A program made the translations under genes and the position numbers. From Bdellovibrionales bacterium (GTDB taxonomy: Bacteria > Bdellovibrionota > Bdellovibrionia > Bdellovibrionales > JAUICD01), in contig OZ253553.1 in the NCBI GenBank assembly GCA_965262715.1, positions 608,001 through 672,000 of the forward strand: a DNA stretch of 64,000 bases. Direction: 5' to 3'. The notes under the pieces were generated by a model that had not been told where the DNA came from, ran no database searches, and worked only from the letters and a program-made list of their open reading frames with translations. Positions 1-23,395 of the stretch are shown here, in pieces (position 1 is the stretch's first letter; each line of letters starts with the position of its first letter).

Positions 1-3000
1 CCTATTTCTTCCAGATATCTTTTAATTTGACCTTGGCAGTCTTTTTCATTATTTTTCCATGTTTCAACCGTACCAAACTCCCCATGAGTGTCTGTATTTG
101 TAGGTCCATCTGATCCAGAAAATCCTGCTTTTTCAAAAGCCTGTCTGAGAACTTCCTTTATAATAAGACGTCGAGCAATTTCCTGTCTGGGCATAGACAA
201 AAAAGGTACTGGAGGAGCATCATTTAAAATCTGTTCTGGGTAATGGAAGTAAAAATTATCAAAGCTATTGCCTCGACATAATGTTAAAGCAAAGGAAAAA
301 GCTTGATTTCTTCTACCGGCTCGGCCCACTCTCTGTTGGTAATTAAATCTTTGTGGAGGCATATTAGCTAAAAATACTGATTGTAACGGACCAATATCTA
401 CACCTACTTCCATTGTAGTTGTAACGCTCAATATATCTATTTCTTCTACAATTTTGTTTTTTGAGTCATCGAGGATTAAGCCACGAAAATGTCTCTGTCT
501 CTCTGGCTGTTTGTTTTTATCTGTTTGAGCAGATAATTCTTCACAGTGAAGACGAATAGGTTCTCTATTATCTTTAACAGACTTTGAATAGTAATTTTTT
601 TTGTACAAATCTTTACAAGTTACATTTGTTTCTTCTTCCAGCTTCGCAAAGCAGTTGCTACATATTCTACCACTATTATGCAAATGAGGTCGTCTACACT
701 TTGGACACTCCCAAGCAGGGTCATTTGGGTTAGCGATTTTTATAAAAAGGTTTTTTGACTCTAAAATCGCTTTTCTGTGACCTTGTTCTTCACAAACTAA
801 TTTCCAAATGATTTGCTCTAACTGATTTTCTTTAATTTGGTGAATTTCTGCACATTTTTTAATATATTCTTTTATCTTTTTTTTCAAATTACTTATAAAG
901 TCAACACTTTGAACTGGATAGAGGCTGTTTTCATATCTCCCGGCATCTCCAAGCATTCTTATAAAACTATTACATATTTCTTTTAAGGAGTTTGAGGACA
1001 AAGATGTATTTTTATCTAAAATTTCATTTTTTTGTTTCTCTATAATGTGATTTTCTATGTTGAGACAAGGAAATCCTAAACCAGAAGACTCAAAACCAAA
1101 GTAAAGCCTTTGAAATAGAGCTCTAAAAATTCTTTGTTTAATCTCATTTCTAAACTCTCCTCTTTTTTCTTTTAAAGTTTGAGAAACTCCATCATTCCAA
1201 ACTTGATATTTTGATGAGTTAAATAAATCATACCATGGATGTTCTTGATTATTTTCTGAATCCCAAGATTTATCTAAAGTATTACCAGCAGGATTGACAC
1301 CCATATTTTTTAGCCTAAGTAGTAATGTTTCTTCTGTGTTATCTTCAAATAAGATATTGATTGGAAGAATTTGTGTTTCTTTCATCCGTTTTATTCTATC
1401 TATTTCTTTCTGATATTTGTCTTTATTTTCTTTTAGTTCGTCAATTAAATCTGATTGTTTTTCACAAAATTGGATGTAATCAATATATTTTTTTAACTTT
1501 TGAAAATGCCCCGGATGTTGACTTTCATATCTTTTAGCCATATCACTTTTTGCCTCTTGATATTGTTCTAAATCTTCTAGAAATTCTGGCTCTCCTTTAA
1601 CAATCAGCTTAAGTTCAGTGTAAAGAATTTCTCTAATCAAATCTTGGTAATGACTTCTTTCAATACCATTAGAAACCCTTGCCGCTTCTTCACGGCTATC
1701 TGAAAAAACAATCATTTTTCTATTTTTTTGATTTAAATGGTAAAACATTTCTTTAGATAAAATCTGTATCATTTTTGAAAATCCTGTTCGAAATCCTTTA
1801 ACGGGAGTTTTTAATTTGCTCTTTTGATAGTTTGCTCCACAGCTTGGACAAATAGAGGATAAAGCCATTATTTTTGATAAATCATCCCTAGAATCAGAAG
1901 TGTTAAATAAATAACCATTGATACAATCATCTTCATGATTATGCTCAAGTTTAATTTTCCCTGATTTTTTATGCAGATTTGCTTTACTCCATTTGTATTT
2001 GGATCGAGATTGTTTCCCTGATGTGGTAGTTAAAGGTTGTGACCACGGTGGTTTATTCTCTATTTCTGAATCAATAGATTGTCCTTTAGGACAAGGCCAA
2101 AACAAGGCATAATCCTTATAACTTCTTTTTTCTACAAAAGGCGTGATCTGCTCATCTGGTATCTTTTCAATGTCTGAAGTGGTTTGCAATAATTCAAAGC
2201 CATTATGATCCTCTCTATTAAACCTTATGCCGCCAAAGAATAATGTGCCACATTGTTCACAGTAAAGGGATTCAAAGACTTTGTGTTGAGCCTTGCAGAG
2301 CAAAGGCGGGTCTTGCAACCATAATTTACCTAAAGAGTTGTTATCATTGTTTTGATCTCTATATTCTTTAGAACATTCAGGATGGGTACAAGCCCATAAA
2401 CCTTCTATATTTTTAAAAAACAAATGAAATCTAAAGGAAAGTTTGATCTGTTTATAATAATTGTGGATAAAGCAAAATAATCCTTCTATAGCTTTTACTG
2501 CATCTTGATCTTCACTAAATATTTTTTTTGAAAGTTCATCTAAAGCAAGAGCTTTTTTACTTTCTTTTTTGAAAATATGACGTATTAAAACATTTATAGA
2601 ATCAAAAATATCTTGGTCTTTATCCTTCTTTAAAGATTTTTTAAGCTCGTTAAGAATTTCTGTTGGTTTATCATTGTTTTTTAGAAAAACTTGAGATGAC
2701 AAGTTTTTAAGATGATGATCAGAAGTCTTAGGATCATCAATTTCACCACTGACGATTTGATCTTTTTTCCAATTTATTCCAAAGAAGTCTTTTAAAAATC
2801 TCAAGCTCTCTGACTTTTCAGGTTCTAGTGAAGCACTAGATGCCAATATTCTTAATTGTGGACTATCAGGTGATAAACCAAGCCTATAGAGAAGTAAACG
2901 AATCAAATAAGCCACTTCCGCACCAGCTGTTCCACGATAAAGGTGCAATTCATCCACAGTCAAATGAAAAATATGACTTGGATCTTTTTCTAACCACTGA

Positions 3001-3998
3001 CGAGTTTTTTTAAAAATATCTTTATCAACGTCTCTCATCATCATAATGCTAAGCATGCTGTAGTTGGTGATCAAAATATCGGGTGGGTGGTCCTGCATGT
3101 CCCAACGGTTTGTCATCTCTGCTCTGTTGATTGTTGAGAAAAAATATTGCAATTCTTTTTTTTCTTTTTGATCAGAATGTTTCTCTAACTGTTGTTGTGT
3201 TTTATCTGTTTCTTCTAAGAATTGAGTGAGTTTTTTCAATTTACTTGTTTTCTTTTCATGTCCTGGGACAGGGGTCATACCTGTATAACGACCAAAATAA
3301 AACCGATTGGAATTACGATTTTCAACAAACCACTTCTCTGCACTATCAGAAGTTAAAGCCTTTCTTAAACGAGAAAGTTGATCTTCTACAAGAGCATTCA
3401 TAGGATAAAGAATTAAAGCTCGAACAGCTGGATCTCTTTTTTCATGGTCCCTTTGAGAAACTCTATAACTTTTTTTTAAGCCTTTGTTATTTTTCTTTTG
3501 ACAGGATTTTTTCCAATCCTCATTTTTCCACCAGTCATTTAAATGAATATCAGGCTTGTCTGGCTTTTCCCAAGTGAAAGACTCTTTCACAAGACTTGCA
3601 AATAAAGGTAATAAAAAGGACTCGGTCTTACCTGAACCTGTTCCAGATGTGATCACTGTATTTTGACCTTTAAGACTTTTTGTCAACATTTCATATTGAT
3701 GTTGATAAAGTTCCATATCTTCTTTTAAAAATCCAGAATGAGCAAAAGCTTGAAAAGCCTTGACCTGATTGGGTGAGAAACCTTCCAAATCCTTTTCTGT
3801 TAAATCAGATATTGTTTTGTTTGATCCTTTGTATTTTTGGATCAATTCAATGTAGGGTTTTTGATAAAAAAGGCCTTCTTTGTCTAGAATTTCTGCTCTT
3901 TCTTTTTCAAATGAAGGAAATTGTGTAGCAAATCGAGTCTGCACATAAAGCTTAAAATTATCCCTGATTTCCTCAAAGGCTTTTATTGGATTACGCAT
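1..3998 (-). CDS. druE: Large SF2 DEAD/DEAH helicase, Druantia DruE-like (3' end beyond window)
   Basis: Hand translation from ATG at 3998 (MRNPIKAFEEIRDNFKLYVQTRF) gives Walker A SGTGSGKTESF, LYPMNALVEDQLSRLRKAL, motif II VDELHLYRGTAGAEVA, TTTMEVGVDIG and NMPPQRFNYQQRVGRAGRR; motifs II and VI were confirmed in frame with the start. Not in the ORF track because no stop lies in the window. Confidence 0.75.
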   Translation of the reverse strand, partial: MRNPIKAFEEIRDNFKLYVQTRFATQFPSFEKERAEILDKEGLFYQKPYIELIQKYKGSNKTISDLTEKDLEGFSPNQVKAFQAFAHSGFLKEDMELYQHQYEMLTKSLKGQNTVITSGTGSGKTESFLLPLFASLVKESFTWEKPDKPDIHLNDWWKNEDWKKSCQKKNNKGLKKSYRVSQRDHEKRDPAVRALILYPMNALVEDQLSRLRKALTSDSAEKWFVENRNSNRFYFGRYTGMTPVPGHEKKTSKLKKLTQFLEETDKTQQQLEKHSDQKEKKELQYFFSTINRAEMTNRWDMQDHPPDILITNYSMLSIMMMRDVDKDIFKKTRQWLEKDPSHIFHLTVDELHLYRGTAGAEVAYLIRLLLYRLGLSPDSPQLRILASSASLEPEKSESLRFLKDFFGINWKKDQIVSGEIDDPKTSDHHLKNLSSQVFLKNNDKPTEILNELKKSLKKDKDQDIFDSINVLIRHIFKKESKKALALDELSKKIFSEDQDAVKAIEGLFCFIHNYYKQIKLSFRFHLFFKNIEGLWACTHPECSKEYRDQNNDNNSLGKLWLQDPPLLCKAQHKVFESLYCEQCGTLFFGGIRFNREDHNGFELLQTTSDIEKIPDEQITPFVEKRSYKDYALFWPCPKGQSIDSEIENKPPWSQPLTTTSGKQSRSKYKWSKANLHKKSGKIKLEHNHEDDCINGYLFNTSDSRDDLSKIMALSSICPSCGANYQKSKLKTPVKGFRTGFSKMIQILSKEMFYHLNQKNRKMIVFSDSREEAARVSNGIERSHYQDLIREILYTELKLIVKGEPEFLEDLEQYQEAKSDMAKRYESQHPGHFQKLKKYIDYIQFCEKQSDLIDELKENKDKYQKEIDRIKRMKETQILPINILFEDNTEETLLLRLKNMGVNPAGNTLDKSWDSENNQEHPWYDLFNSSKYQVWNDGVSQTLKEKRGEFRNEIKQRIFRALFQRLYFGFESSGLGFPCLNIENHIIEKQKNEILDKNTSLSSNSLKEICNSFIRMLGDAGRYENSLYPVQSVDFISNLKKKIKEYIKKCAEIHQIKENQLEQIIWKLVCEEQGHRKAILESKNLFIKIANPNDPAWECPKCRRPHLHNSGRICSNCFAKLEEETNVTCKDLYKKNYYSKSVKDNREPIRLHCEELSAQTDKNKQPERQRHFRGLILDDSKNKIVEEIDILSVTTTMEVGVDIGPLQSVFLANMPPQRFNYQQRVGRAGRRNQAFSFALTLCRGNSFDNFYFHYPEQILNDAPPVPFLSMPRQEIARRLIIKEVLRQAFEKAGFSGSDGPTNTDTHGEFGTVETWKNNEKDCQGQIKRYLEEI

Positions 3999-4971
3999 TA
4001 TTTTTCCTGTTTTGAAACCTTAGTTTCTGTTCCAGTTTACAAGCGATAAGTTCCGCTATTTTATAAGGAACACTTTTGAAGATAAATTTTTTATTTTCTC
4101 TAATAGGAGGAATTCCAGAAAGCAACGTCAATCCTCTTTCAAAAATAGCTGGAAACCGAAGTTTCGAGCACAATTCAAATGTTTGTTTATCATATTCTAA
4201 TACAGGACAATTTGATTGCTTTGCCATAATAAAACGTCCCCAATCTAAATTGACTTTTGCTTTATCTTCGTTTGAAGACTTAAAAAGATAATATGTGTGA
4301 GATTTTTCATAATGTGATATTTTAACAAGAGATAAGTCATTTCTAAATTGCTCTTTTGATTCAAGGTTTTGAAACTTTAAGGTGCTTGTATCGAAAAACT
4401 GTTTAATATCTGATGTATTGCCACTATGCCATTCTAAAGATAAAGACTGCTCGTATTGATTTATATCTCCAGTAAATTCTAATATATCCCAAGCTATAGG
4501 ATGTTCACAAGCTTTTATATAACCTGATAACTTATTTCCTTGAAACGCAACTTTTTGTAGATGATCTTCCAAATCTTCTCTATTTTCAGGTTTTATCATC
4601 ACAGTAGCTGGAAGACATTTATGACTTGTTATTTCAGTTTGAAAATGAGATTTGATCGTTTTCAACAATTCAGGAATGCATGCTCCTGTCAGAAGAAAAA
4701 TAGGCGTAAGATAAGGCAGGGCCACCAGCATAGGTGGAGTTACTTTGATATATGTTTGGCTGTTATTTTCTCCTATGTCTATGTATCCTAAAGCACTTAA
4801 TTTTCTGGAGAGATTAAGTATAAAATATTTGTCTTTCTCTAAAGAGTCTCTTCCATAAAGAATCTCTACATACTTTTTGAAATCATGCCATCTCAAAGTC
4901 TTTTTTTTAGAGAGTAAATACAGCAAATAATGACCCGGTTGACCTTTAGACTTTAACATGTTCTGCCTCAT
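3991..4971 (-). CDS. Hypothetical protein, Druantia-like accessory subunit (DruG-like or C-terminal half of DruH)
   Basis: 326-aa ORF overlapping both the upstream ORF and the helicase start; assignment from context. Confidence 0.5.
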   Translation of the reverse strand: MRQNMLKSKGQPGHYLLYLLSKKKTLRWHDFKKYVEILYGRDSLEKDKYFILNLSRKLSALGYIDIGENNSQTYIKVTPPMLVALPYLTPIFLLTGACIPELLKTIKSHFQTEITSHKCLPATVMIKPENREDLEDHLQKVAFQGNKLSGYIKACEHPIAWDILEFTGDINQYEQSLSLEWHSGNTSDIKQFFDTSTLKFQNLESKEQFRNDLSLVKISHYEKSHTYYLFKSSNEDKAKVNLDWGRFIMAKQSNCPVLEYDKQTFELCSKLRFPAIFERGLTLLSGIPPIRENKKFIFKSVPYKIAELIACKLEQKLRFQNRKNNA

Positions 4972-7024
4972 TTAAAAGTTTTTTCCATTCTTGTTTTTGT
5001 GGTTTTGAATCAAGGTTAAGTTGAATACGTTTTCTACGATGCCAGATGATTTTTTTCCATTGATCGATTTGTTTTCTAGAAAATTTGTTATTTGTATCAG
5101 TAAGTGATGATTTGAGTACATTTCCAAGATAATGTGCTATAGCCTTTTTATGTGTCTTAAAATGAATCATCCAATTAGCAGTCCATTTTAAATCTGTCCA
5201 TGATACAGAAATTTGCCCTGGTGTATCTCCTATCCAATAAATTTTTCCATAAGTGGGTAATTCAATATTTGGAAACCTTGTATAATCCTCTTTATGTTGT
5301 AAATAAGGTCCATAAGTTCCTTGAAGAAGTTGATTATTTTCGTTTTCCTCTTTTAAATTTCCAAAACGATCCATTGCATACCCATTCGAATATTCATTAA
5401 ATTTCTCTAATTGAGTTTTTACAAGCATAAGATGTGATTTTGTTGGTAGTCTTGAATCGCTGCCTTTTAATATGATCTCAATCCGTTCATTATAAGGAAT
5501 ATCTTTAGGAAGTAAAAAAGAATAAGAGGATTTACCTGAAGGAATCAGCTTCTTTTCTTCATTATTGACTTTATAAAAAGTCTCTGGGTCTTGATCTCTA
5601 CATCCTATAACTTTAACTTGAGGAAGGGCAAAATCAAAAAATTGATTGCCTTTAGAAAGACGAATACCTCCTTCAAAATGAATTTTAGAATGTTCATCTA
5701 TGGCAAGAGCAGGTATGGAATCTTTAATCAGACTATCATTTTTTACGCCTTTTATTTTGAAAAGATGCCAATTTGTTGGCAGGCCTGTAAAGTCATTTAA
5801 TTTTTGAAATTTGTCACATTCTTTCTGACCCCATCTTTGGACTTTCTCAACAAGATCAGAATGAACAGCAAGATAAAATAATTCATCTGGCGTATATCTC
5901 TGACCTGATACCCATCCGTCTACTTCTAATTCACTACCCTTTGTGAATATTTTGTATTTTTCTCCTTTATAGTGAAAGTGATATTTATTATCATCGGTTA
6001 TGCTAGCAGAAAAATCTTTTGCCCAATCTTTAATGGAAAACTCTTGGATGAAACCAGATATAGTAGATGATGGGGATGGCACTTGCCATTCCTTATTTTC
6101 ATTTTTTAAAATAAAATCTTCATCAGGCAATCCATTTGCTTTTTTACACCTAAAAGAAACCTTAACAGTTTTAGCTGTTTGATCTATATCATTTAAACAG
6201 ATGAGAATTTGCCCTCTTTTTTGATGGCGGCCAGCTGATGTTTCTTCTATCTGATCTTCATCATAGTTTTTAAGTTCTTCTAAAAATCTATTACATAATT
6301 GAGAACGAAAATCAAGTCTGCCTTTTTCAATTCTTTTTTGAGTCCTATTTGAAAGCTTTTGTTTATATCTCTTTAAGGCTTGCAAAATCTCTGCTTCTGT
6401 GGGGATGGAATCTGAATCCCATCCCATTTTCCAAAATATTTCAGGAAGATGCTGTTGATCTTCTTTTGTAAGGACTACTTGATAATAAAGGATACCGACA
6501 TAAAGCCGTCCACCGTATATATCAAGATGAAACTCCCCAAACCCACCTTGTTTATCTTCTAAAGTCCATTTTTCTAAATCCTCCCATAAATCTGGTATGT
6601 TTTTAAAGTCTTGTGTTGAAAGGTTCTCTCCTATAAGCTCATTAAGTCTTGGATAATAAGCTATTTCAGAAAAATCTTCATTATTTCTCCCATGGCTGAC
6701 AGCTAATACAAATAAAGCTAAATAGGCGGTATAGGGTGGATATTTAAATTGACTTTTATCACTTTCCCACTTTTTAAATATCTTATGAGCTTTTTTACAG
6801 ACATTGTTTTGTTTTAAGTCATTTTTGATCTCATCAGGGCCTAATTTAACAACCTTTATAAATTCTTCAAAAGTGGTGTTGTTTTCTTTAGCAATTTTTC
6901 CTATTAAATCTTTTTCGGCAGAAAACCACATGCGTTGTCCGGACTTGTTCTCATTGAAAAAATAACTTGCAATTGCATCATTCCACTCCAGATACTTCAA
7001 GACAAAATCCTTTCTGATTTTCAA
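4946..7024 (-). CDS. Hypothetical protein, Druantia-like accessory subunit (DruF-like or N-terminal part of DruH)
   Basis: 692-aa ORF with TTG start; N-terminal YLEWNDAIASYFF...YPPYTAYLALFVLA resembles partners of DruE-type helicases; first gene of the operon. Confidence 0.5.
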   Translation of the reverse strand: MKIRKDFVLKYLEWNDAIASYFFNENKSGQRMWFSAEKDLIGKIAKENNTTFEEFIKVVKLGPDEIKNDLKQNNVCKKAHKIFKKWESDKSQFKYPPYTAYLALFVLAVSHGRNNEDFSEIAYYPRLNELIGENLSTQDFKNIPDLWEDLEKWTLEDKQGGFGEFHLDIYGGRLYVGILYYQVVLTKEDQQHLPEIFWKMGWDSDSIPTEAEILQALKRYKQKLSNRTQKRIEKGRLDFRSQLCNRFLEELKNYDEDQIEETSAGRHQKRGQILICLNDIDQTAKTVKVSFRCKKANGLPDEDFILKNENKEWQVPSPSSTISGFIQEFSIKDWAKDFSASITDDNKYHFHYKGEKYKIFTKGSELEVDGWVSGQRYTPDELFYLAVHSDLVEKVQRWGQKECDKFQKLNDFTGLPTNWHLFKIKGVKNDSLIKDSIPALAIDEHSKIHFEGGIRLSKGNQFFDFALPQVKVIGCRDQDPETFYKVNNEEKKLIPSGKSSYSFLLPKDIPYNERIEIILKGSDSRLPTKSHLMLVKTQLEKFNEYSNGYAMDRFGNLKEENENNQLLQGTYGPYLQHKEDYTRFPNIELPTYGKIYWIGDTPGQISVSWTDLKWTANWMIHFKTHKKAIAHYLGNVLKSSLTDTNNKFSRKQIDQWKKIIWHRRKRIQLNLDSKPQKQEWKKLLNEAEHVKV

Positions 7025-8089: not shown

Positions 8090-8541
8090 CTATGGAAGTA
8101 AATTTATATGTGTTTTATTTTTATATATATGTCCCCTAGGCTTATTGATTATTCGATGATCTGTGAAATCTTCATGTAAATCTTTATCCCCTTTATCACC
8201 ACCAAATAACAGTCTGGCCCTTCTCTCTACTAATGCTATAGCAAGAATATGTGTGTCATTGGACCTTATTGAAGTCTTGTTGATCTTACGAGTAAGATCA
8301 ATTTTTTCTTTCATCTCTTTTGATTCAACTCGATAAGTAGCTCTTTGTAACCTTATGATCATTTTTTTCATGTTAGGAGATTTTTTATTTCATCTATGCT
8401 TTTCTTATCATTACCATATACTAATGTTAATTTTTGTTTTTTAATACACTTATGAATAGGTACTGAATCTTCATGATTCATATCTACAAATTTGTGAAAA
8501 ACACTAGCATCAACAATTATTCCCGGCTTTGACAATCCCAT
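8090..8541 (-). pseudogene. PIN-like domain protein split by a 1-nt frameshift (or sequencing error)
   Basis: ATG 8541 gives MGLSKPGIIVDASVFHKF... to TGA at 8368; the 8090..8371 ORF continues with SNDTHILAIAL...DKDLHEDF. One extra A in the A6 run (T6 at 8381-8386) fuses them into about 150 aa with PIN-type acidic residues. Confidence 0.65.
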
Positions 8542-8583
8542 AATTCTATCCTATTTTTCTAAATTAAGATGTTGTAATAAAAC

Positions 8584-9867
8584 TTAATCTTCTAATCCTA
8601 ACAATTCATAATCTTCTTGTAAAAAAAAGTCTGTATAGCTGTCTGGTTGATTTTCAAGATTTCCGTTGGAGTCAATAGTGATTGGATGAATTTTAGTTGC
8701 TCCATTTTTTAATTCAAAATATAATATTAAAAAGGCTTCTGGCTTAAGATTTTTTTTCTTAATCTCAATACTTGACCTCTTAATGATATAATCACTATGA
8801 GTCTCACAGATAAATCTGTATTTTTTATCATGCTCATTGATCATATTGATCATATTGATCATATTGATCATAAGAGTTGCAAATTCAGCTTCTACCTTCG
8901 GATGAAGGTGAACTTCAGGCTGTTGTATCAAAAATGTATTGTATTTTTCTTGGTCTGAAATAAGCACGTTCCCCAAAATTGGCAAAAATTGATTGACTCC
9001 ATAACCAACATTTGTGATATCTGATTCTAATTCATCAACTTTAACTTTTATTGAAAATGGAGAGAACTTATCTTCTTTATTTAATATATGTATATCTAAA
9101 TCTTGAAAAAGGCTTGAATCTTTACCAAATTTTTTAAGCTTTTCTTCTATTTCATTCCAAGCTTTCTTTCTTTTCATCTGTGCCATCTCACATAAAACAT
9201 AAGATGAGTCTGTAGTTTTAATTCGACTAGGCTCATATTGTTTTTTCGGTTCCAGATGTATTGGGTTAAAAAGATTACAATTCATTTTTTTCCACTGTTC
9301 TTGAAGTTTTAATAAGTTGGTTATTTTTGAATGTAAAATTTTATTTTTTTCAAGAAAGTCTTTTGGATTATTAGATAAAAAAGAAATAATATGAAAAAAG
9401 TTAATATCAAAATCTAAAGGCATAGTGCCTTTATATTCCTCTTGTTCGTTCACAAGAATTCTTATCATAATATTTTCTTCTATGTTTATCTCTATATTAT
9501 CTTCAGAACAGTTTATCAGAATCCTGTTGCATATTTCCCCCTTTTTTATTGAATATTCTATACTCCATTTATCTCTACCAATTTGTAATGTTGCTCCAAT
9601 CTTTATTGTATTATCATCAGATTGCTGTCTTACAATGCTTTCAGAACCTCCAAGATATTTATATATTGGATCTTTCAATAAGTCTCCTATAGATAAGGGT
9701 TTTATAGGTTTGTCTTTATATAAAAGGTCATGGATGAGTTGATAAGAGGCTAAAAAGGTAGTTTTCCCTGTGTTATTTTCCCCTACAATTATAGTAATAG
9801 GACGGATGAGACTTTTTACTTCTGAAAAACATCTTAAGTTTTTTATTTCTAGACTGTTGATGACCAT
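8584..9867 (-). CDS. ABC-type/AAA_21-like ATPase (DUF3696-like C-terminus)
   Basis: Walker A GENNTGKT, signature VGYGVNQFLP, Walker B LIQQPEVHLHP, H-loop ETHSD; GGAGG RBS favours ATG 9867 over 9879. Confidence 0.85.
   Translation of the reverse strand: MVINSLEIKNLRCFSEVKSLIRPITIIVGENNTGKTTFLASYQLIHDLLYKDKPIKPLSIGDLLKDPIYKYLGGSESIVRQQSDDNTIKIGATLQIGRDKWSIEYSIKKGEICNRILINCSEDNIEINIEENIMIRILVNEQEEYKGTMPLDFDINFFHIISFLSNNPKDFLEKNKILHSKITNLLKLQEQWKKMNCNLFNPIHLEPKKQYEPSRIKTTDSSYVLCEMAQMKRKKAWNEIEEKLKKFGKDSSLFQDLDIHILNKEDKFSPFSIKVKVDELESDITNVGYGVNQFLPILGNVLISDQEKYNTFLIQQPEVHLHPKVEAEFATLMINMINMINMINEHDKKYRFICETHSDYIIKRSSIEIKKKNLKPEAFLILYFELKNGATKIHPITIDSNGNLENQPDSYTDFFLQEDYELLGLED
8836..8871. repeat. 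In-frame 9-bp tandem repeat x4 (MIN)4 in the ATPase
   Basis: (ATTGATCAT)4 read directly. Confidence 0.9.
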
Positions 9868-11303
9868 AATGACCTCCATAGGTTTAATAAAAAATCTAAT
9901 TTGTTTTCTTTTTTAAGTTGTTTATCACGTTGTAATACTTTGATAACTTGTTTATCACCCTTTCCCACAATGTTTGAAAAGTAACAATTTTTATTACATA
10001 GAGATTCATCTTTATTTATTGTTCCAGACAAGAAATTATATTCTAGTTTTTTTAATCTTGGCCACCAATTTTCAGACAAGATAAAATGTAACATCATTAA
10101 GACCTCTAGACTGGATAGGTTTTGACTAAAAGGGAAAATATTTGCATTTCCAAAACCTCTCTTTGAATGTAAATACTCAATATATGAAGGATTATCTAAA
10201 GAACCATCAAGTTCCATAGATACGTCTGAAGTTGTATATTGTTTTCTACATAGCATGCACTTATGTCCATAAGTTACGATGTGACAACCCCATCGAGCAT
10301 CAAAAAATTTATCATGCCTTTTACTAACAGCTATTCCTCCATCAATTACAGGTATCAAATAGGCATAAGCTATATGATTTAAAACATCTCTTGCCAAGGG
10401 TTTATCTACACAACTAAAAATGATATCACAGTCTAATACTGATCTAAAGGCAGATTGTGTTTGTATAGGCTGTATAATAGCTTTTACTTTTATCTTCTCA
10501 TTCACAGAATGTTTTAATATTTTTTCTTTGAAAAAATCTGCTTTAAATTTTCCAATATCCTTTCTAGTTGCATAAAGTAGCCGATCTAAATTATGCTCTT
10601 CAATTTTATCATGATCTATTAAAATAATATTTTCGATACCTATTCTAGCCAAATTTTCACTCACAATAGAACCTACACTGCCAAGTCCTACAATACCTAT
10701 TTTCATTCTGCTAATTTTTAACTGTTCCTTTAAACTCCAAGTCTCAATAGTCCTTCGTAAAATATTTTTATTTTGAGATTGATGATATAATTGCTCATTA
10801 AAAGTAACCTTAAATTGATTTCCTACAACTTTTACTTTATCACACCAGAATCGTTTAAACTTTCTGTTTTTCTGTTTTATCCAGAATCTGGCACTCCAAC
10901 TCTCATTTGTGCCTATTGTTAAACCTACCAAAGGCTTTTTTGTACTATTTGCTGGAGGTGCTATTCGATCTCTTTCAGCAATAATATCTGTATGACTCAT
11001 ATCTTGCCATCCTTCAGTAGGATGACTATGCATAAAGGCAAGTCCTGCTTTTTTCTCTATAGCTATTCGTAATGAGCGAGCTAAAAATTCGGGAGAAAAA
11101 CTTGTATTACCATGAAGATTTCTTTCACTTCTCTTAGGAAGAATAATTTCAGAAATAAGAGCTGTTGTTTTACTTTTTCCAATGCAAGGATTCCAAATTG
11201 CAAAACAGAGTTCTTCCTGATGTTTATCCTGTTTAAAATGAGAGAGTAAATGTTCAGAAGCAATTTTGTGGGCACTTTCTGTTAAAATAACTTCATATTT
11301 CAT
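9849..11303 (-). CDS. JAB/MPN peptidase fused to ThiF/E1-like adenylation enzyme (BubCD-like)
   Basis: N-terminal QEE...MHSHP...MSHTD JAMM motif; C-terminal GLGSVGS, DHDKIEEHNLDRL, SCVD, PVIDGG, CMLC and CNKNC zinc ligands. Confidence 0.88.
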   Translation of the reverse strand: MKYEVILTESAHKIASEHLLSHFKQDKHQEELCFAIWNPCIGKSKTTALISEIILPKRSERNLHGNTSFSPEFLARSLRIAIEKKAGLAFMHSHPTEGWQDMSHTDIIAERDRIAPPANSTKKPLVGLTIGTNESWSARFWIKQKNRKFKRFWCDKVKVVGNQFKVTFNEQLYHQSQNKNILRRTIETWSLKEQLKISRMKIGIVGLGSVGSIVSENLARIGIENIILIDHDKIEEHNLDRLLYATRKDIGKFKADFFKEKILKHSVNEKIKVKAIIQPIQTQSAFRSVLDCDIIFSCVDKPLARDVLNHIAYAYLIPVIDGGIAVSKRHDKFFDARWGCHIVTYGHKCMLCRKQYTTSDVSMELDGSLDNPSYIEYLHSKRGFGNANIFPFSQNLSSLEVLMMLHFILSENWWPRLKKLEYNFLSGTINKDESLCNKNCYFSNIVGKGDKQVIKVLQRDKQLKKENKLDFLLNLWRSLWSSTV

Positions 11304-11722
11304 AAGTTTTCCCAGAATCGTCTCAAATGCGATTCAAAAAAAATAAACAGATTTTTTTTTGAACTGTCTAAATCATCCCATATATCTTGAGGTGGCCTAC
11401 TCAACACTATCCAAGTTTCTTCTTCAATTATATATTTCTCATATATTTTACCTATCTTGCCTATGATCTCTTCATTAAACTCTTTTTTTTTGAGGTGTAT
11501 AAAGTGAGGAGGTAATCTAGGATAATCATTTGGAGGAAGTTCTATTCCAATAATAATTTTTTTCCTCTTTAAAGAGCCACAAGGAATAAGGTATTTGAAT
11601 AGGCACAATTGCCCCTCCCTTTTTGATTGAAGAGGTAGATTTAGCATATTTTTTATATCTTGTAGATTACAAGAAGGAATATTTTTTATTTCTATTTGAA
11701 TTTGTTGTTTTAAACTTTCCAT
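11300..11722 (-). CDS. Prokaryotic E2/UBC-fold protein with Ser at the putative catalytic position (BubB-like)
   Basis: IELPPNDYPRLPPHFIHL and WIVLSRPP..W motifs; lies between Ubl and E1 genes with ATGA overlap to E1. Confidence 0.7.
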   Translation of the reverse strand: MESLKQQIQIEIKNIPSCNLQDIKNMLNLPLQSKREGQLCLFKYLIPCGSLKRKKIIIGIELPPNDYPRLPPHFIHLKKKEFNEEIIGKIGKIYEKYIIEEETWIVLSRPPQDIWDDLDSSKKNLFIFFESHLRRFWENL

Positions 11723-11725
11723 TAA

Positions 11726-12196
11726 TTATGCCACAGGAGTCGGTCCAGAAGAAAGTGCCAAAAATTCATCCCCATTTTCAATTAATACTTTTTCATTTAA
11801 ATCTTTATAGTCCATGTTTGTTTTAGCATTAAATAATTTAAATTTTTCTACAGGTATAAATTCTGCCTTTTCAAGTATCTGTGCCACTGTTTGTTCATTA
11901 TTTGTAGCTAGAATTTCTTGATCTTCTCCATTAACAGTATAGTGAATTCTTAATTCTTGAGACTTGTAGTGAATAGTAAATTCATCTCCACTTTTAACTT
12001 CAATCTTTTGATGTAAGTGTTGTTCTATTCCGTTCCATACTTCTTCTTTTTCCCCACCTTGAATTCTAAAAATAATATAGACATTATAAGGTTCTTGTTT
12101 TTTCCCAATTTCTAAAATGTCTTTGGGTGTTATAAAAGGTTTTGACCATGGTTTTTCATGGTTGTCTATTTTTATATATATATCAGATATAGTCAT
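11726..12196 (-). CDS. Multi-ubiquitin (two beta-grasp domain) protein (BubA-like)
   Basis: Two related halves: IYIKIDN...ITPKDILE...IEVKSGDEF and IHYTVNG...TVAQILE...VLIENGDEF; tail SSGPTPVA; first gene of the E2/E1 operon. Confidence 0.75.
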   Translation of the reverse strand: MTISDIYIKIDNHEKPWSKPFITPKDILEIGKKQEPYNVYIIFRIQGGEKEEVWNGIEQHLHQKIEVKSGDEFTIHYKSQELRIHYTVNGEDQEILATNNEQTVAQILEKAEFIPVEKFKLFNAKTNMDYKDLNEKVLIENGDEFLALSSGPTPVA

Positions 12197-12441
12197 AATG
12201 AAAACATCCTTTTATAGGGTTAATTTGTCAAAGTAATTTGATTCTTAATGGTCAAATAACTAGAAGCGGTCTCAAAAATAAAAGTTTAATAAGTATTGCC
12301 AGAAATTCATAACTTTATCTAACTATAATATATCTCTGTGTTCACCTTCGTCTATAAACGTTTGTACCTATTACCTCTAGCTTCTTATATAAAAGAGCTG
12401 TCTTCCTCAAAATGAATCACGCCGCTGGCGTGCTTTCTGGC

Positions 12442-12474
12442 ACTGATCCGATGGTGAAAAACCATCGGATCAGT
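12442..12474. other. Perfect 14-bp stem hairpin at island edge
   Basis: ACTGATCCGATGGT-GAAAA-ACCATCGGATCAGT. Confidence 0.7.
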
Positions 12475-12831
12475 ACCTAGAAAGCCTATTCATTTTGAGT
12501 ACAAGCCATCTCATGAGTTGTTTTGTATAATGCAAAACTGGTATCTTTTTTAAAACTTTTCTCTCTAGGAGCATTTTTGAGATGGCTTTTAGCAAATAAG
12601 TTACCTAATATACCAATAGAGTCACAAATTGTTTTGGGCAACCCATTATAGATAATAGCATATCTGTTATATAATAACAAATCATAATAGATGGTGGCAT
12701 ATTTATCATTTTTGGGTATCAAGCAGAAAAAATGTTTATTTTAGAAACTTAAGCTTCTTCTAACACAAATAAAGAATAATCTACAAACCCTTCCCTATGG
12801 TTTTGCTGAACCTGTCAATAAGAGATGAAGA

Positions 12832-21439: not shown

Positions 21440-23395
21440 CCTGAGTTTGACACTTAATTTGAATTTTCGTGATATTTTTTTCAAGGAATGTTGTATTTAT
21501 AGTCATTAGCGGTTATTGTGTTTGTATTTTGGTCAAAAAGTGTAGTGTACTTATTTATCATACACTACGCGTCATATACCTTATTTTCTTTTATTTTTTA
21601 TATTTTTCTTGTAATGTATTTTTATGTTCATAAGGTCTACAAGAAATCCGAGAGGAGACATATATTATCATCTTGTTGAGAGCTACAGATTAGGTTCTCA
21701 AGTGAAGCAAAGGATTCTAATGTCTTTAGGTAAAGCCGCGGATAAGGAAGTTAACTTGAAGAAGCTTCTAGAAGTATTATCTAAAGAGTTAGAGATAATT
21801 CCTGCTAGTAAGTTATTAAAAGAGATTGATGTTAAAGACACTTTTATATTAGGTCCCTTACTTATAATAGATGCTATTTTCAAACAATTAAATCTCTATG
21901 AATTATTAACAGATTTAAAACAAAAGCACCCTAAAGTACAATTTGATTTTGTTAAGATTATTTTTACATTGGTTATAAGCCGTTTTGTAGAGCCATGTTC
22001 TAAGCTTAAAGTATTTTCACACTGGCAGAAGTTATTTTACCCTGATTTTTTAGAAGAGGAGCTTCATCTTCAAGACATTTATCGTTCTTTAGATATTCTA
22101 AGTAAGCATAAGGAAGATATAGAGAAGACTCTTTATACACAAGGTAAGTCTCAGTTAAGTTTTTTCAATGAGTGTGATGTTATTTTGTATGATTTAACGA
22201 CATTGAGATTTGAGAGTACCCGAGAGGATTTAGATAATCTTCGAAGATTTGGTTATAGCAAAGAGAAGAGGAGTGATTGTACCCAGGTGGTATTTGGACT
22301 TTTAGTAGATAGAGAAGGTATGCCCTTAGGCTTTGATGTTTATCCTGGAAATACCTTTGAAGGTAAAACCATACCTTCAGTTATGGAGAAACTAAAAAAG
22401 AAGTTTAAGATCAGAAGATTTATATTAGTAGGAGATAGAGGTTTATTTTCTAATGAGAATTTACAATCTGTAAAAGCAAAGGGAGATGAATTTATAGTAG
22501 GATTAAAGCTAGGTTTATTAAAGGATCGTCATGCAGAGATATACAATTTAAAGAATTTTAAATTTATAAATGAAAATTTAGCTATATACGAGACGAGTTA
22601 TAATGATAATCGTTGTATAATTACCTGGTCAAGAAAGAGAGCAGAACGAGATAAGAAAGTAAGAGAAGATATTCTATCTAAGTTAGAAGATAAGCTTTCA
22701 AAATCGTCATCAAGCACAAAGGATTTTGTATCTAATAGCAATTATAAGAAGTATATTATTCATCCTAAGAGTAAAGGCAAGCCTACTTTAAATAAGTCAG
22801 CCATAGAACAATCAGAGAGGACAGATGGTTTTTTTGGAATCATTACAAATACAGATAGTTTAAGTTCTGAAGAGATTATAACGAACTATAAGCAATTATG
22901 GAAGGTAGAGAATTCATTTAGAGAATTGAAAGGTACATTAAAGACACGTCCTATGTTCCACTGGACAGATAAGAGGATCTTAGGACATTTAGTTGTGTGT
23001 TTTTTATCTTACTTATGTGAGGCTTATTTTTCAAAGAAGTTACATCAGAGAAACATCACATTAAAAGATAAAGCAATTACAGACAAGAGAATAAAGTCAA
23101 GGCCATTGAGTGTGGCAGAAGCTATGTCAAAGCTGAAAGAAGTACGAGCTATACCTGTGAGGGTAAAGGATAAGACACTTTGGATCAGAACAGATATTAA
23201 CGGTAACAATGCTGATGTATTTAAAGCTATAGGAGCAAAGATCCCATCAAAACAACTTAAAGTAGAATCTACTTAGACCTACAAACAATCTCTTAAATCT
23301 CTACCACAAAATCAAAATGTAGTGGTACAAAATCACACATCCACTGTAACTAACTAAAATAACTTAACTTTATTTTCGCAACTGTCAAACTCAGG
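21440..23395 (+). mobile_element. IS1634-family insertion sequence
   Basis: Perfect 13-bp terminal inverted repeats CCTGAGTTTGACA (21440) and TGTCAAACTCAGG (23383-23395), one transposase, long flanking direct repeat. Confidence 0.93.
21624..23276 (+). CDS. IS1634-family DDE transposase
   Basis: YYHLVESYR, LYDLTTLRFE, FGYSKEKRSD, VGDRGL, YKQLWKVENSFRELK, RPMFHW. Confidence 0.95.
   Translation: MFIRSTRNPRGDIYYHLVESYRLGSQVKQRILMSLGKAADKEVNLKKLLEVLSKELEIIPASKLLKEIDVKDTFILGPLLIIDAIFKQLNLYELLTDLKQKHPKVQFDFVKIIFTLVISRFVEPCSKLKVFSHWQKLFYPDFLEEELHLQDIYRSLDILSKHKEDIEKTLYTQGKSQLSFFNECDVILYDLTTLRFESTREDLDNLRRFGYSKEKRSDCTQVVFGLLVDREGMPLGFDVYPGNTFEGKTIPSVMEKLKKKFKIRRFILVGDRGLFSNENLQSVKAKGDEFIVGLKLGLLKDRHAEIYNLKNFKFINENLAIYETSYNDNRCIITWSRKRAERDKKVREDILSKLEDKLSKSSSSTKDFVSNSNYKKYIIHPKSKGKPTLNKSAIEQSERTDGFFGIITNTDSLSSEEIITNYKQLWKVENSFRELKGTLKTRPMFHWTDKRILGHLVVCFLSYLCEAYFSKKLHQRNITLKDKAITDKRIKSRPLSVAEAMSKLKEVRAIPVRVKDKTLWIRTDINGNNADVFKAIGAKIPSKQLKVEST

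Follow-up and report, generated by a model that had tools for sequence, protein, structure and literature searches.

Can a bacterial ubiquitin-like tagging pathway be wired to a toxic nuclease, or do two such modules merely share an address? The question is raised by five genes in a 64,000-nt stretch of a Bdellovibrionales genome (contig OZ253553.1, positions 608,001 to 672,000; hereafter the window), which encode a ubiquitin-like protein (Ubl), an E2, a fusion of a JAB peptidase to an E1, an ABC ATPase and a PIN-family nuclease (Table 1). An original prediction, made from the DNA letters, had proposed that the first three genes (the triplet) and the ATPase–PIN pair are joined in one candidate defence system. 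We find that the five-gene operon is real, recurs in other bacteria and is an undescribed variant that combines parts of two known types, and that the link between the triplet and the pair is long-lived and not obligate. As to function, our preferred reading, which we put forward tentatively, is that the pair is a plug-in kill module guarding a tagging pathway like that of the Bub operons, the whole being a composite immunity or stress operon.

A recurrent five-gene operon

All five genes lie on the minus strand in the order predicted, Ubl–E2–JAB-E1–ATPase–PIN, and their junctions are as described, namely a 3-nt gap, an ATGA overlap, a 19-nt overlap and a 42-nt gap. The 19-nt overlap between the JAB–E1 and ATPase genes holds with the ATPase start placed at the ATG at 9867, which lies behind GGAGG; the longest start given by the open reading frame (ORF) finder is at 9879. 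Judged from this spacing, the five genes are probably read as a single transcript. Scans for promoters (36 sites against 31 ± 6 in shuffled sequences) and for terminators in the operon both stayed at chance level. The predicted domain calls are supported, as set out below.

Table 1. Genes of the operon and the neighbouring defence locus (positions in the window unless another locus is named)
Feature	Position	Strand	Remarks
Tandem two-domain ubiquitin-like protein (Ubl), 156 aa	11726..12196	-	ends GPTPVA, without terminal glycine
BubB-like E2, 140 aa	11300..11722	-	putative catalytic Ser108; His73 at BubB Asp299 position; Pro at His335 position
JAB peptidase–E1 fusion (BubCD-like), 484 aa	9849..11303	-	ThiF E 4e-35
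OLD-type ABC ATPase, DUF3696-like tail, NsnB-like, 427 aa	8584..9867	-	AAA_15, AAA_21, PADLOC NsnB
PIN-family nuclease gene, frameshifted	8090..8541	-	two ORFs: 8541-8368 (57 aa) + 8371-8090 (93 aa)
Druantia type IV locus	1-7024, continuing L070 8360-13999	-	DruF4, DruL4, 1879-aa helicase-like ORF

The order is not due to chance, since 5/5 genome loci (L001–L005) keep all five genes in order at different insertion sites and with different flanks; L064 is one more five-gene genome locus. The spread is patchy, with E1 matches in 11 of the 301 genomes searched from the class, and the operon was not found in the one same-genus genome that was examined. Outside the window, 11 places were compared: six carry all five genes (L001–L005 included), four have the triplet with a convergent DUF2971-like gene and one is a canonical Bub operon. 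The 39 metagenome loci reduce to 29 distinct ones, and in four of these the ATPase gene comes next (three with the PIN gene, one ending inside the ATPase gene). The predicted recurrence of the ATPase–PIN pair behind the JAB–E1 fusion is thus found in six genomes of the class and in 4/29 metagenome loci.

The linkage is also deep. It persists down to 45% E1 identity, and the ATPases of the two clades that show it are only 19–28% identical. In the second linked clade, 22 of the 120 listed PIN homologues pair with one of the 120 listed E2 homologues, compared with 0.35 by chance; the pairs were inferred from equal-sized contigs, and the lists hold the best 120 of 131 and 120 of 319 matches. Dropping one 578-nt contig, which is too short for both genes, leaves 21 inferred pairs, in which PIN and E2 divergence are correlated (Mantel r 0.90, beyond all 5000 permutations) over PIN identities of 29–88%. 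Among the listed second-clade PINs on contigs > 4 kb, 51/73 have no E2 partner match. The idea that the two modules are joined therefore stands as a recurrent arrangement and falls as an obligate partnership, since both halves occur apart.

Mobile elements were noted as well. A 333-bp element bounded by terminal inverted repeats and resembling a miniature inverted-repeat transposable element (MITE) lies immediately ahead of the Ubl gene (window 12260-12592). The genome has seven near-full-length copies of it at 87–100% identity, and the element may have changed the promoter of the operon. Outside the window, G000:C1:558700-562400 holds ~14 near-identical 257-bp tandem units that include part of the MITE, the longest open frame in this array being <= 52 codons. 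A DDE_Tnp_1 transposase gene lies at window 21624-23276, and transposase-like ORFs similar to it flank the operon in L001.

Catalytic residues of the two arms

The best PDB match of the JAB–E1 fusion is Citrobacter BubCD (E 2e-22 as a single sequence, 3e-28 as a profile). Across 37 loci, H92, H94 and D106 of the JAB metal site E30/H92/H94/D106 are present in 37/37 and E30 in 35/37 (two rows are truncated); the adenylation residue R241 is kept in 37/37, and the Zn cysteines 349/352/436/440 are kept too. The crossover loop has no Cys in 36/37 loci, and Tyr374 is present in 36/37. Tyr374 is probably equivalent to BubCD Y370, an assignment that must allow for the PDB alignments stopping before the loop, for the loop being shorter here and for Y356 also being kept (34/37). 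The triplet family is widespread and includes Actinomycetota plasmids (a wider search with the JAB–E1 fusion gave 3712 matches at E <= 0.001, other ThiF-like proteins among them); relatives of the JAB–E1 fusion were sought in viral contigs and phages and none were found. A 26% identical JAB–E1 homologue lies behind two small coupled hypothetical genes on a Halanaeroarchaeum plasmid (L105 3753-6497), which is possibly an archaeal version of the triplet.

The profile of the E2 family also finds a Bub protein as its best PDB match (Citrobacter BubB, E 4e-7); in this match Ser108 falls on the serine in WSRH, at the position of BubB S333. This serine is invariant in 20/20 aligned sequences and in 120/120 further homologues listed, and relatives of the E2 match Prok-E2_E. 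The helper residues are replaced, Asp299 by His73 and His335 by Pro. Single-sequence PDB searches with the Ubl and the E2, and a profile PDB search with the Ubl, gave no relevant match. The Ubl itself matches Multi_ubiq below the cut-off (E 0.001), its homologue in L057 has two Multi_ubiq stretches (E 1.5e-9), and its top ESM Atlas matches are Multi_ubiq clusters (0.88–0.89, taken as leads only). T-P-V-A is invariant in 16/16 aligned Ubls, and the last residue is Ala or Ser in 22/22 listed Ubl ends, for which the selection motif itself required Ala or Ser. Some relatives have a short extension past the PTPV(A/S) motif, or an E2 fused behind PVS, suggesting that the JAB domain cleaves behind Ala or Ser. 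This family is not the only one with a non-glycine end: a Type II Bub-like operon of the same genome has a Ubl ending in Ser.

In the second arm, the ATPase matches AAA_15 (E 9e-22), AAA_21 (E 3e-14) and, below the cut-off, DUF3696 (E 0.002). Its best PADLOC model is Menshen NsnB (E 1e-36); AriA matches at E 4e-27. The original prediction had likened it to the ATPases of PARIS, Septu and Gabija; the ABC type holds, and the closest relative is NsnB, ahead of PARIS AriA or Gabija GajA. The protein has a Walker A GENNxGK, a GxG signature, an atypical Walker B QQPE and an H-loop, with QQP in 31/31 members of the family. Just past Walker B (window ~8835-8872), a 9-nt unit is expanded in frame, giving MIN four times compared with twice in relatives.

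The PIN family keeps an acidic quartet (L001 numbering), with D11, D99 and D122 in 101/101 homologues and E51 in 97/101; its proteins are probable RNases. Pfam PIN models match 35/101 members (best E 3e-8) and the ESM Atlas returns a PIN cluster at a score of 0.92, which we treat as a lead; a PDB profile search with the family matched no PIN structure. Whole PINs gave nothing better than E 3e-4 in PADLOC, with no NsnC among the 11 families matched by the 101 members, and no whole-PIN match was found in plasmids. In the window, the PIN gene (452 nt) is one base short compared with five relatives, at a homopolymer run at ~8381-8386. The relatives' PINs are whole (146–168 aa), those of the closest relatives on record (E1 92–96% identical), which lie on contigs that match in size, measure 146, 147 and 125 aa, and two near-identical PIN proteins read through the break site; the lesion is therefore private to this strain or assembly. 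When four public runs were matched to the locus, no listed piece spanned the frameshift, a result with no bearing on expression or on the reality of the break. In the window copy the second arm probably has no functional PIN, unless faulty assembly accounts for the frameshift.

Models for the link between the arms

ATPase–PIN pairs are found well beyond this operon. Among 109 genomes of one family, 16 of the 22 PIN matches are not behind a triplet, and all have an ATPase adjoining. When 17 chosen neighbours of these 16 loci were scanned, 5/16 pairs proved to lie in or against type III restriction–modification genes; in L106, L108, L111, L112 and L116 the pair stands between or beside the Mod and Res genes. 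A comparison is provided by PrrC, which sits inside a type I restriction locus. The PIN family has 1369 clusters at E <= 1e-10, and the pair has the look of a two-gene module, widespread and unnamed, with kinship to the Menshen core.

The triplet has another companion in its sister clade (L006, L009, L012, L023, L029 and L057–L060; nine distinct loci), where a convergent DUF2971-like gene is present and, in 8/9 loci, shares ~20–40 nt with the E1 gene at the 3′ end of the latter. DUF2971 is a predicted DarT-like ADP-ribosyltransferase family according to PMC12522546, and its Pfam matches here are below cut-off. The gene is a possible alternative effector, or may serve antisense regulation.

The E1 tree has the form (clade 2, (window clade, DUF2971 clade)), with support of 94–96 for the window and DUF2971 clades as sisters, which implies repeated loss or gain of the ATPase–PIN pair; these E1 trees are quick trees with long-branch and composition warnings. 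The tree of the Ubl terminal domain places both ATPase–PIN-linked clades together (support 93), apart from DUF2971-linked and other triplets. The linked ATPases lie outside the clade holding 19/20 stand-alone ATPases (support 94) and were not rejected as one clade by the approximately unbiased (AU) test (p-AU 0.62); window-type PINs stand beside stand-alone PINs in a midpoint-rooted FastTree. A claim of two independent captures of the pair, as the identities and the FastTree had suggested, received no support from the AU test and was dropped; two captures may still have occurred. The most economical history is a single old five-gene lineage, in the sister of which DUF2971 took the place of ATPase–PIN.

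In the guard model that we prefer, the JAB domain would trim those Ubl precursors that have an extension or a fused E2, cutting behind PTPV(A/S), and the E1 would adenylate the Ala/Ser terminus. The Ubl would then be relayed as an oxyester from E1 Tyr374 to E2 Ser108, by homology to the chemistry demonstrated for Bub (PMC11601596), and attached by the E2 to target lysines. The NsnB-like ATPase would bind the PIN RNase via its C-terminal tail, as the Menshen models suggest, and keep it silent while reading the state of the tagging arm, be it Ubl in free or conjugated form or a phage inhibitor of either. Once that arm reports infection or is blocked, the ATPase would free the PIN, RNA would be cut and the infected cell stopped. 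The pair would thus act as a plug-in module that can also dock into type III restriction loci. We favour this model because the module docks into other defence operons, because Ubl type tracks partner type and because retron Ec78 sets a precedent in co-opting the stand-alone ATPase–nuclease PtuAB (PMC12819146). We infer the coupling of the arms, and an antiphage role, from genomics only. A more specific form, in which a glycine-less Ubl tag passed through Tyr/Ser oxyesters switches an ATPase-held PIN RNase, a sister lineage has a DUF2971 ADP-ribosyltransferase-like gene at the corresponding position, and the whole is an immune system, is conceivable and open to considerable doubt. If true, this would be the first case of a Bub-type pathway connected to an effector that kills the cell, and the PIN partner may then represent the active ancestor of the inactive-PIN adaptor in Menshen.

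Several observations weigh against a guard. Of the 29 distinct metagenome loci, 15 have neither partner within 1–6 kb, five have the convergent DUF2971-like gene and five are too short. The window's own genome holds two further ATPase–PIN pairs, and 0/16 of the other pairs in the family survey have a Ubl, E2 or E1 upstream or nearby. The PIN gene is frameshifted in the window copy while the triplet is intact. Monophyly of the linked clades in the E1 tree has a p-AU of 0.046, and the co-inheritance of PIN and E2 follows from physical linkage alone and is no sign of interaction. With QQ at Walker B, ATP hydrolysis by the ATPase is uncertain. Finally, no Bub operon is reported, in the accessible parts of PMC11601596 and PMC13373217, to have protected E. 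coli from phage.

A rival view, close behind, is that the operon holds two biochemically independent defence layers carried on one mobile cassette under a common promoter. The triplet would by itself tag phage or stress substrates, and the ATPase–PIN pair would sense its own trigger in the manner of PARIS or Septu. We regard this as a plausible rival and would not be greatly surprised if it proved right: stand-alone pairs are common, most metagenome loci have a triplet and no pair, and the placement of window-type PINs next to stand-alone PINs agrees with it. It accounts less well for the E1 stop/ATPase start junction, which was held (overlapping or close) while the ATPases diverged to ~20% identity, for a Ubl type that tracks partner type and for linked ATPases that fall outside the clade of the stand-alone ones.

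Tracking of partner type by the Ubl would suit a direct modification, in which the Ubl is conjugated onto the ATPase or the PIN and so primes or silences the nuclease, comparable to the priming of CBASS by Cap2, which conjugates the CD-NTase (PMC11601596, 10.1101/2024.11.21.623966). As no BubE adjoins the operon, such marks may be long-lived. Stand-alone pairs keep the same catalytic residues with no triplet nearby, and no lysine is invariant in a 101-row PIN alignment; we consider this model unlikely.

A last alternative is a stress pathway unrelated to phage (DNA damage or dormancy), with damaged proteins being tagged and growth arrest falling to the PIN arm. It draws on the same lack of phage protection by Bub operons, which are often under DNA-damage regulators (PMC11601596, PMC13373217), and on IrrE/ImmA-type peptidase genes upstream of triplet relatives in L026, L028, L029, L035, L041 and a Nocardioides plasmid. 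The patchy spread over the class, including the same-genus genome in which the operon was not found, fits a conflict system, as do the varying insertion sites and the Druantia and restriction genes found alongside; we judge a stress pathway very improbable. For Bub, the chemistry is solved and the biological role open, since no Bub operon protected cells from phage. A Bub-like triplet tied to a toxic nuclease would make PIN-dependent growth arrest a direct read-out of conjugation, and the operon thus offers a testable clue to the role of bacterial tagging pathways.

The Druantia-like neighbour, which had been taken as support for a defence role, is indeed a Druantia type IV locus (DruF4 E 5e-123, DruL4 E 2e-34), its helicase-like ORF being presumably DruE, and a RidA-family gene lies between it and the operon. 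No match to DruF or DruL was found near L001–L005; adjacency is not conserved, and a fixed Druantia link was rejected, leaving the neighbour as weak defence-island evidence.

Comparison with known systems

No named model covers the five-gene architecture in PADLOC and NCBIfam scans, and the Ubl, the E2 and both PIN halves match no PADLOC or relevant NCBIfam family. The literature within reach, which excluded most subscription papers and all bioRxiv supplements, holds no account of a BubE-less family with Ala/Ser-ended Ubls or of its ATPase–PIN link, and the terms ubiquitin, ThiF, PIN, JAB and AAA do not occur in PMC13069673.

The closest relative of the triplet is Type I Bub (6E.1; Citrobacter BubA/BubB/BubCD/BubE, PMC11601596), with which it shares the gene order Ubl–E2–JAB/E1 fusion, an E1 with a conserved Tyr and no crossover-loop Cys, and a Ser at the catalytic position of the E2; separate Ubl and E2 genes occur there too (Table S1). 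The operon here differs in having no adjoining BubE/DUF6527, a Ubl that ends in Ala/Ser and not Gly, His/Pro in place of E2 Asp299/His335, a shorter crossover loop and an appended ATPase–PIN pair. Its E1 is only 26% identical to a canonical Type I BubCD of the same order (L067). In the accessible text, 'All Bub operons possess bubE' and the published catalogue was seeded on DUF6527 (PMC11601596, Table S1), both Bub types are defined with BubE (10.1101/2024.11.21.623966), and the entry available for class 6e in the 2006 survey lists a metal-binding protein and no ATPase (PMC1779556).

In the window's genome, which the PF20137 result covers, bubE (DUF6527, PF20137) is not at the window locus, and the only copy lies ~550 kb off in its own operon; in L001–L005 the ATPase gene overlaps the E1 stop. 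Supply of BubE by an orphan gene was rejected, as the sole DUF6527 gene belongs to a separate Type II Bub-like operon (L077 6496-8432; G000:C1:1165.5-1167.4 kb), made up of an 85-aa Ubl-like ORF ending in Ser, a DUF6791–ThiF fusion and DUF6527. That operon adjoins an AAA_15 ATPase gene on the opposite strand. On sequence grounds, the triplet is an undescribed, cysteine-free sister family of Type I Bub that falls outside the published definitions of Bub, and by homology it probably uses the same oxyester chemistry. Lying outside the DUF6527-seeded catalogue, the family tests whether an Ala/Ser-ended Ubl with a rearranged E2 site can conjugate.

Bil Types I and II likewise have Ubl, E2, JAB and E1 functions in one operon, and Type I Bil has a two-domain Ubl as here (PMC11601596, 10.1101/2024.11.21.623966). 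In Bil, JAB and E1 are separate genes and the E1 has a catalytic-cysteine domain, whereas here the two are fused, with Tyr and Ser at the catalytic positions; Bil membership was rejected on these grounds. Of the two operon types named in the original prediction, Bil and Bub, the likeness to Bub therefore holds and that to Bil does not, and Bub is the one without demonstrated phage protection.

In the second arm, as in Menshen (NsnA–NsnB–NsnC, PMC12065111), a PIN-fold protein comes after an AAA_15 ATPase that has the GxG signature and ends in a DUF3696-like tail. AlphaFold 3 models in the same source show the DUF3696 tails of NsnB sandwiching the PIN-fold domain, which is inactive, fused to a nuclease and downstream of a DUF262 sensor. 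Here the PIN is a single domain (~150 aa) that keeps D-E-D-D, compared with the inactive PIN and C-terminal nuclease of NsnC; Walker B has QQ where NsnB has EN, and there is no ParB–DUF262 NsnA. NsnA (PF03235) has no match in the window's genome (92.7% complete), and in five related genomes 0/18 PF03235 matches lie within 20 kb of an ATPase–PIN pair. Membership in Menshen was rejected, as NsnA is missing and the PIN is single-domain and apparently active.

The logic proposed here, with a stand-alone ABC ATPase–nuclease placed under another defence apparatus, is that of PrrC. It is also that of retron Ec78–Septu (PMC12819146). Compared with both, the partner here is a protein-conjugation pathway, and the nuclease is a PIN, not an HNH or HEPN enzyme.

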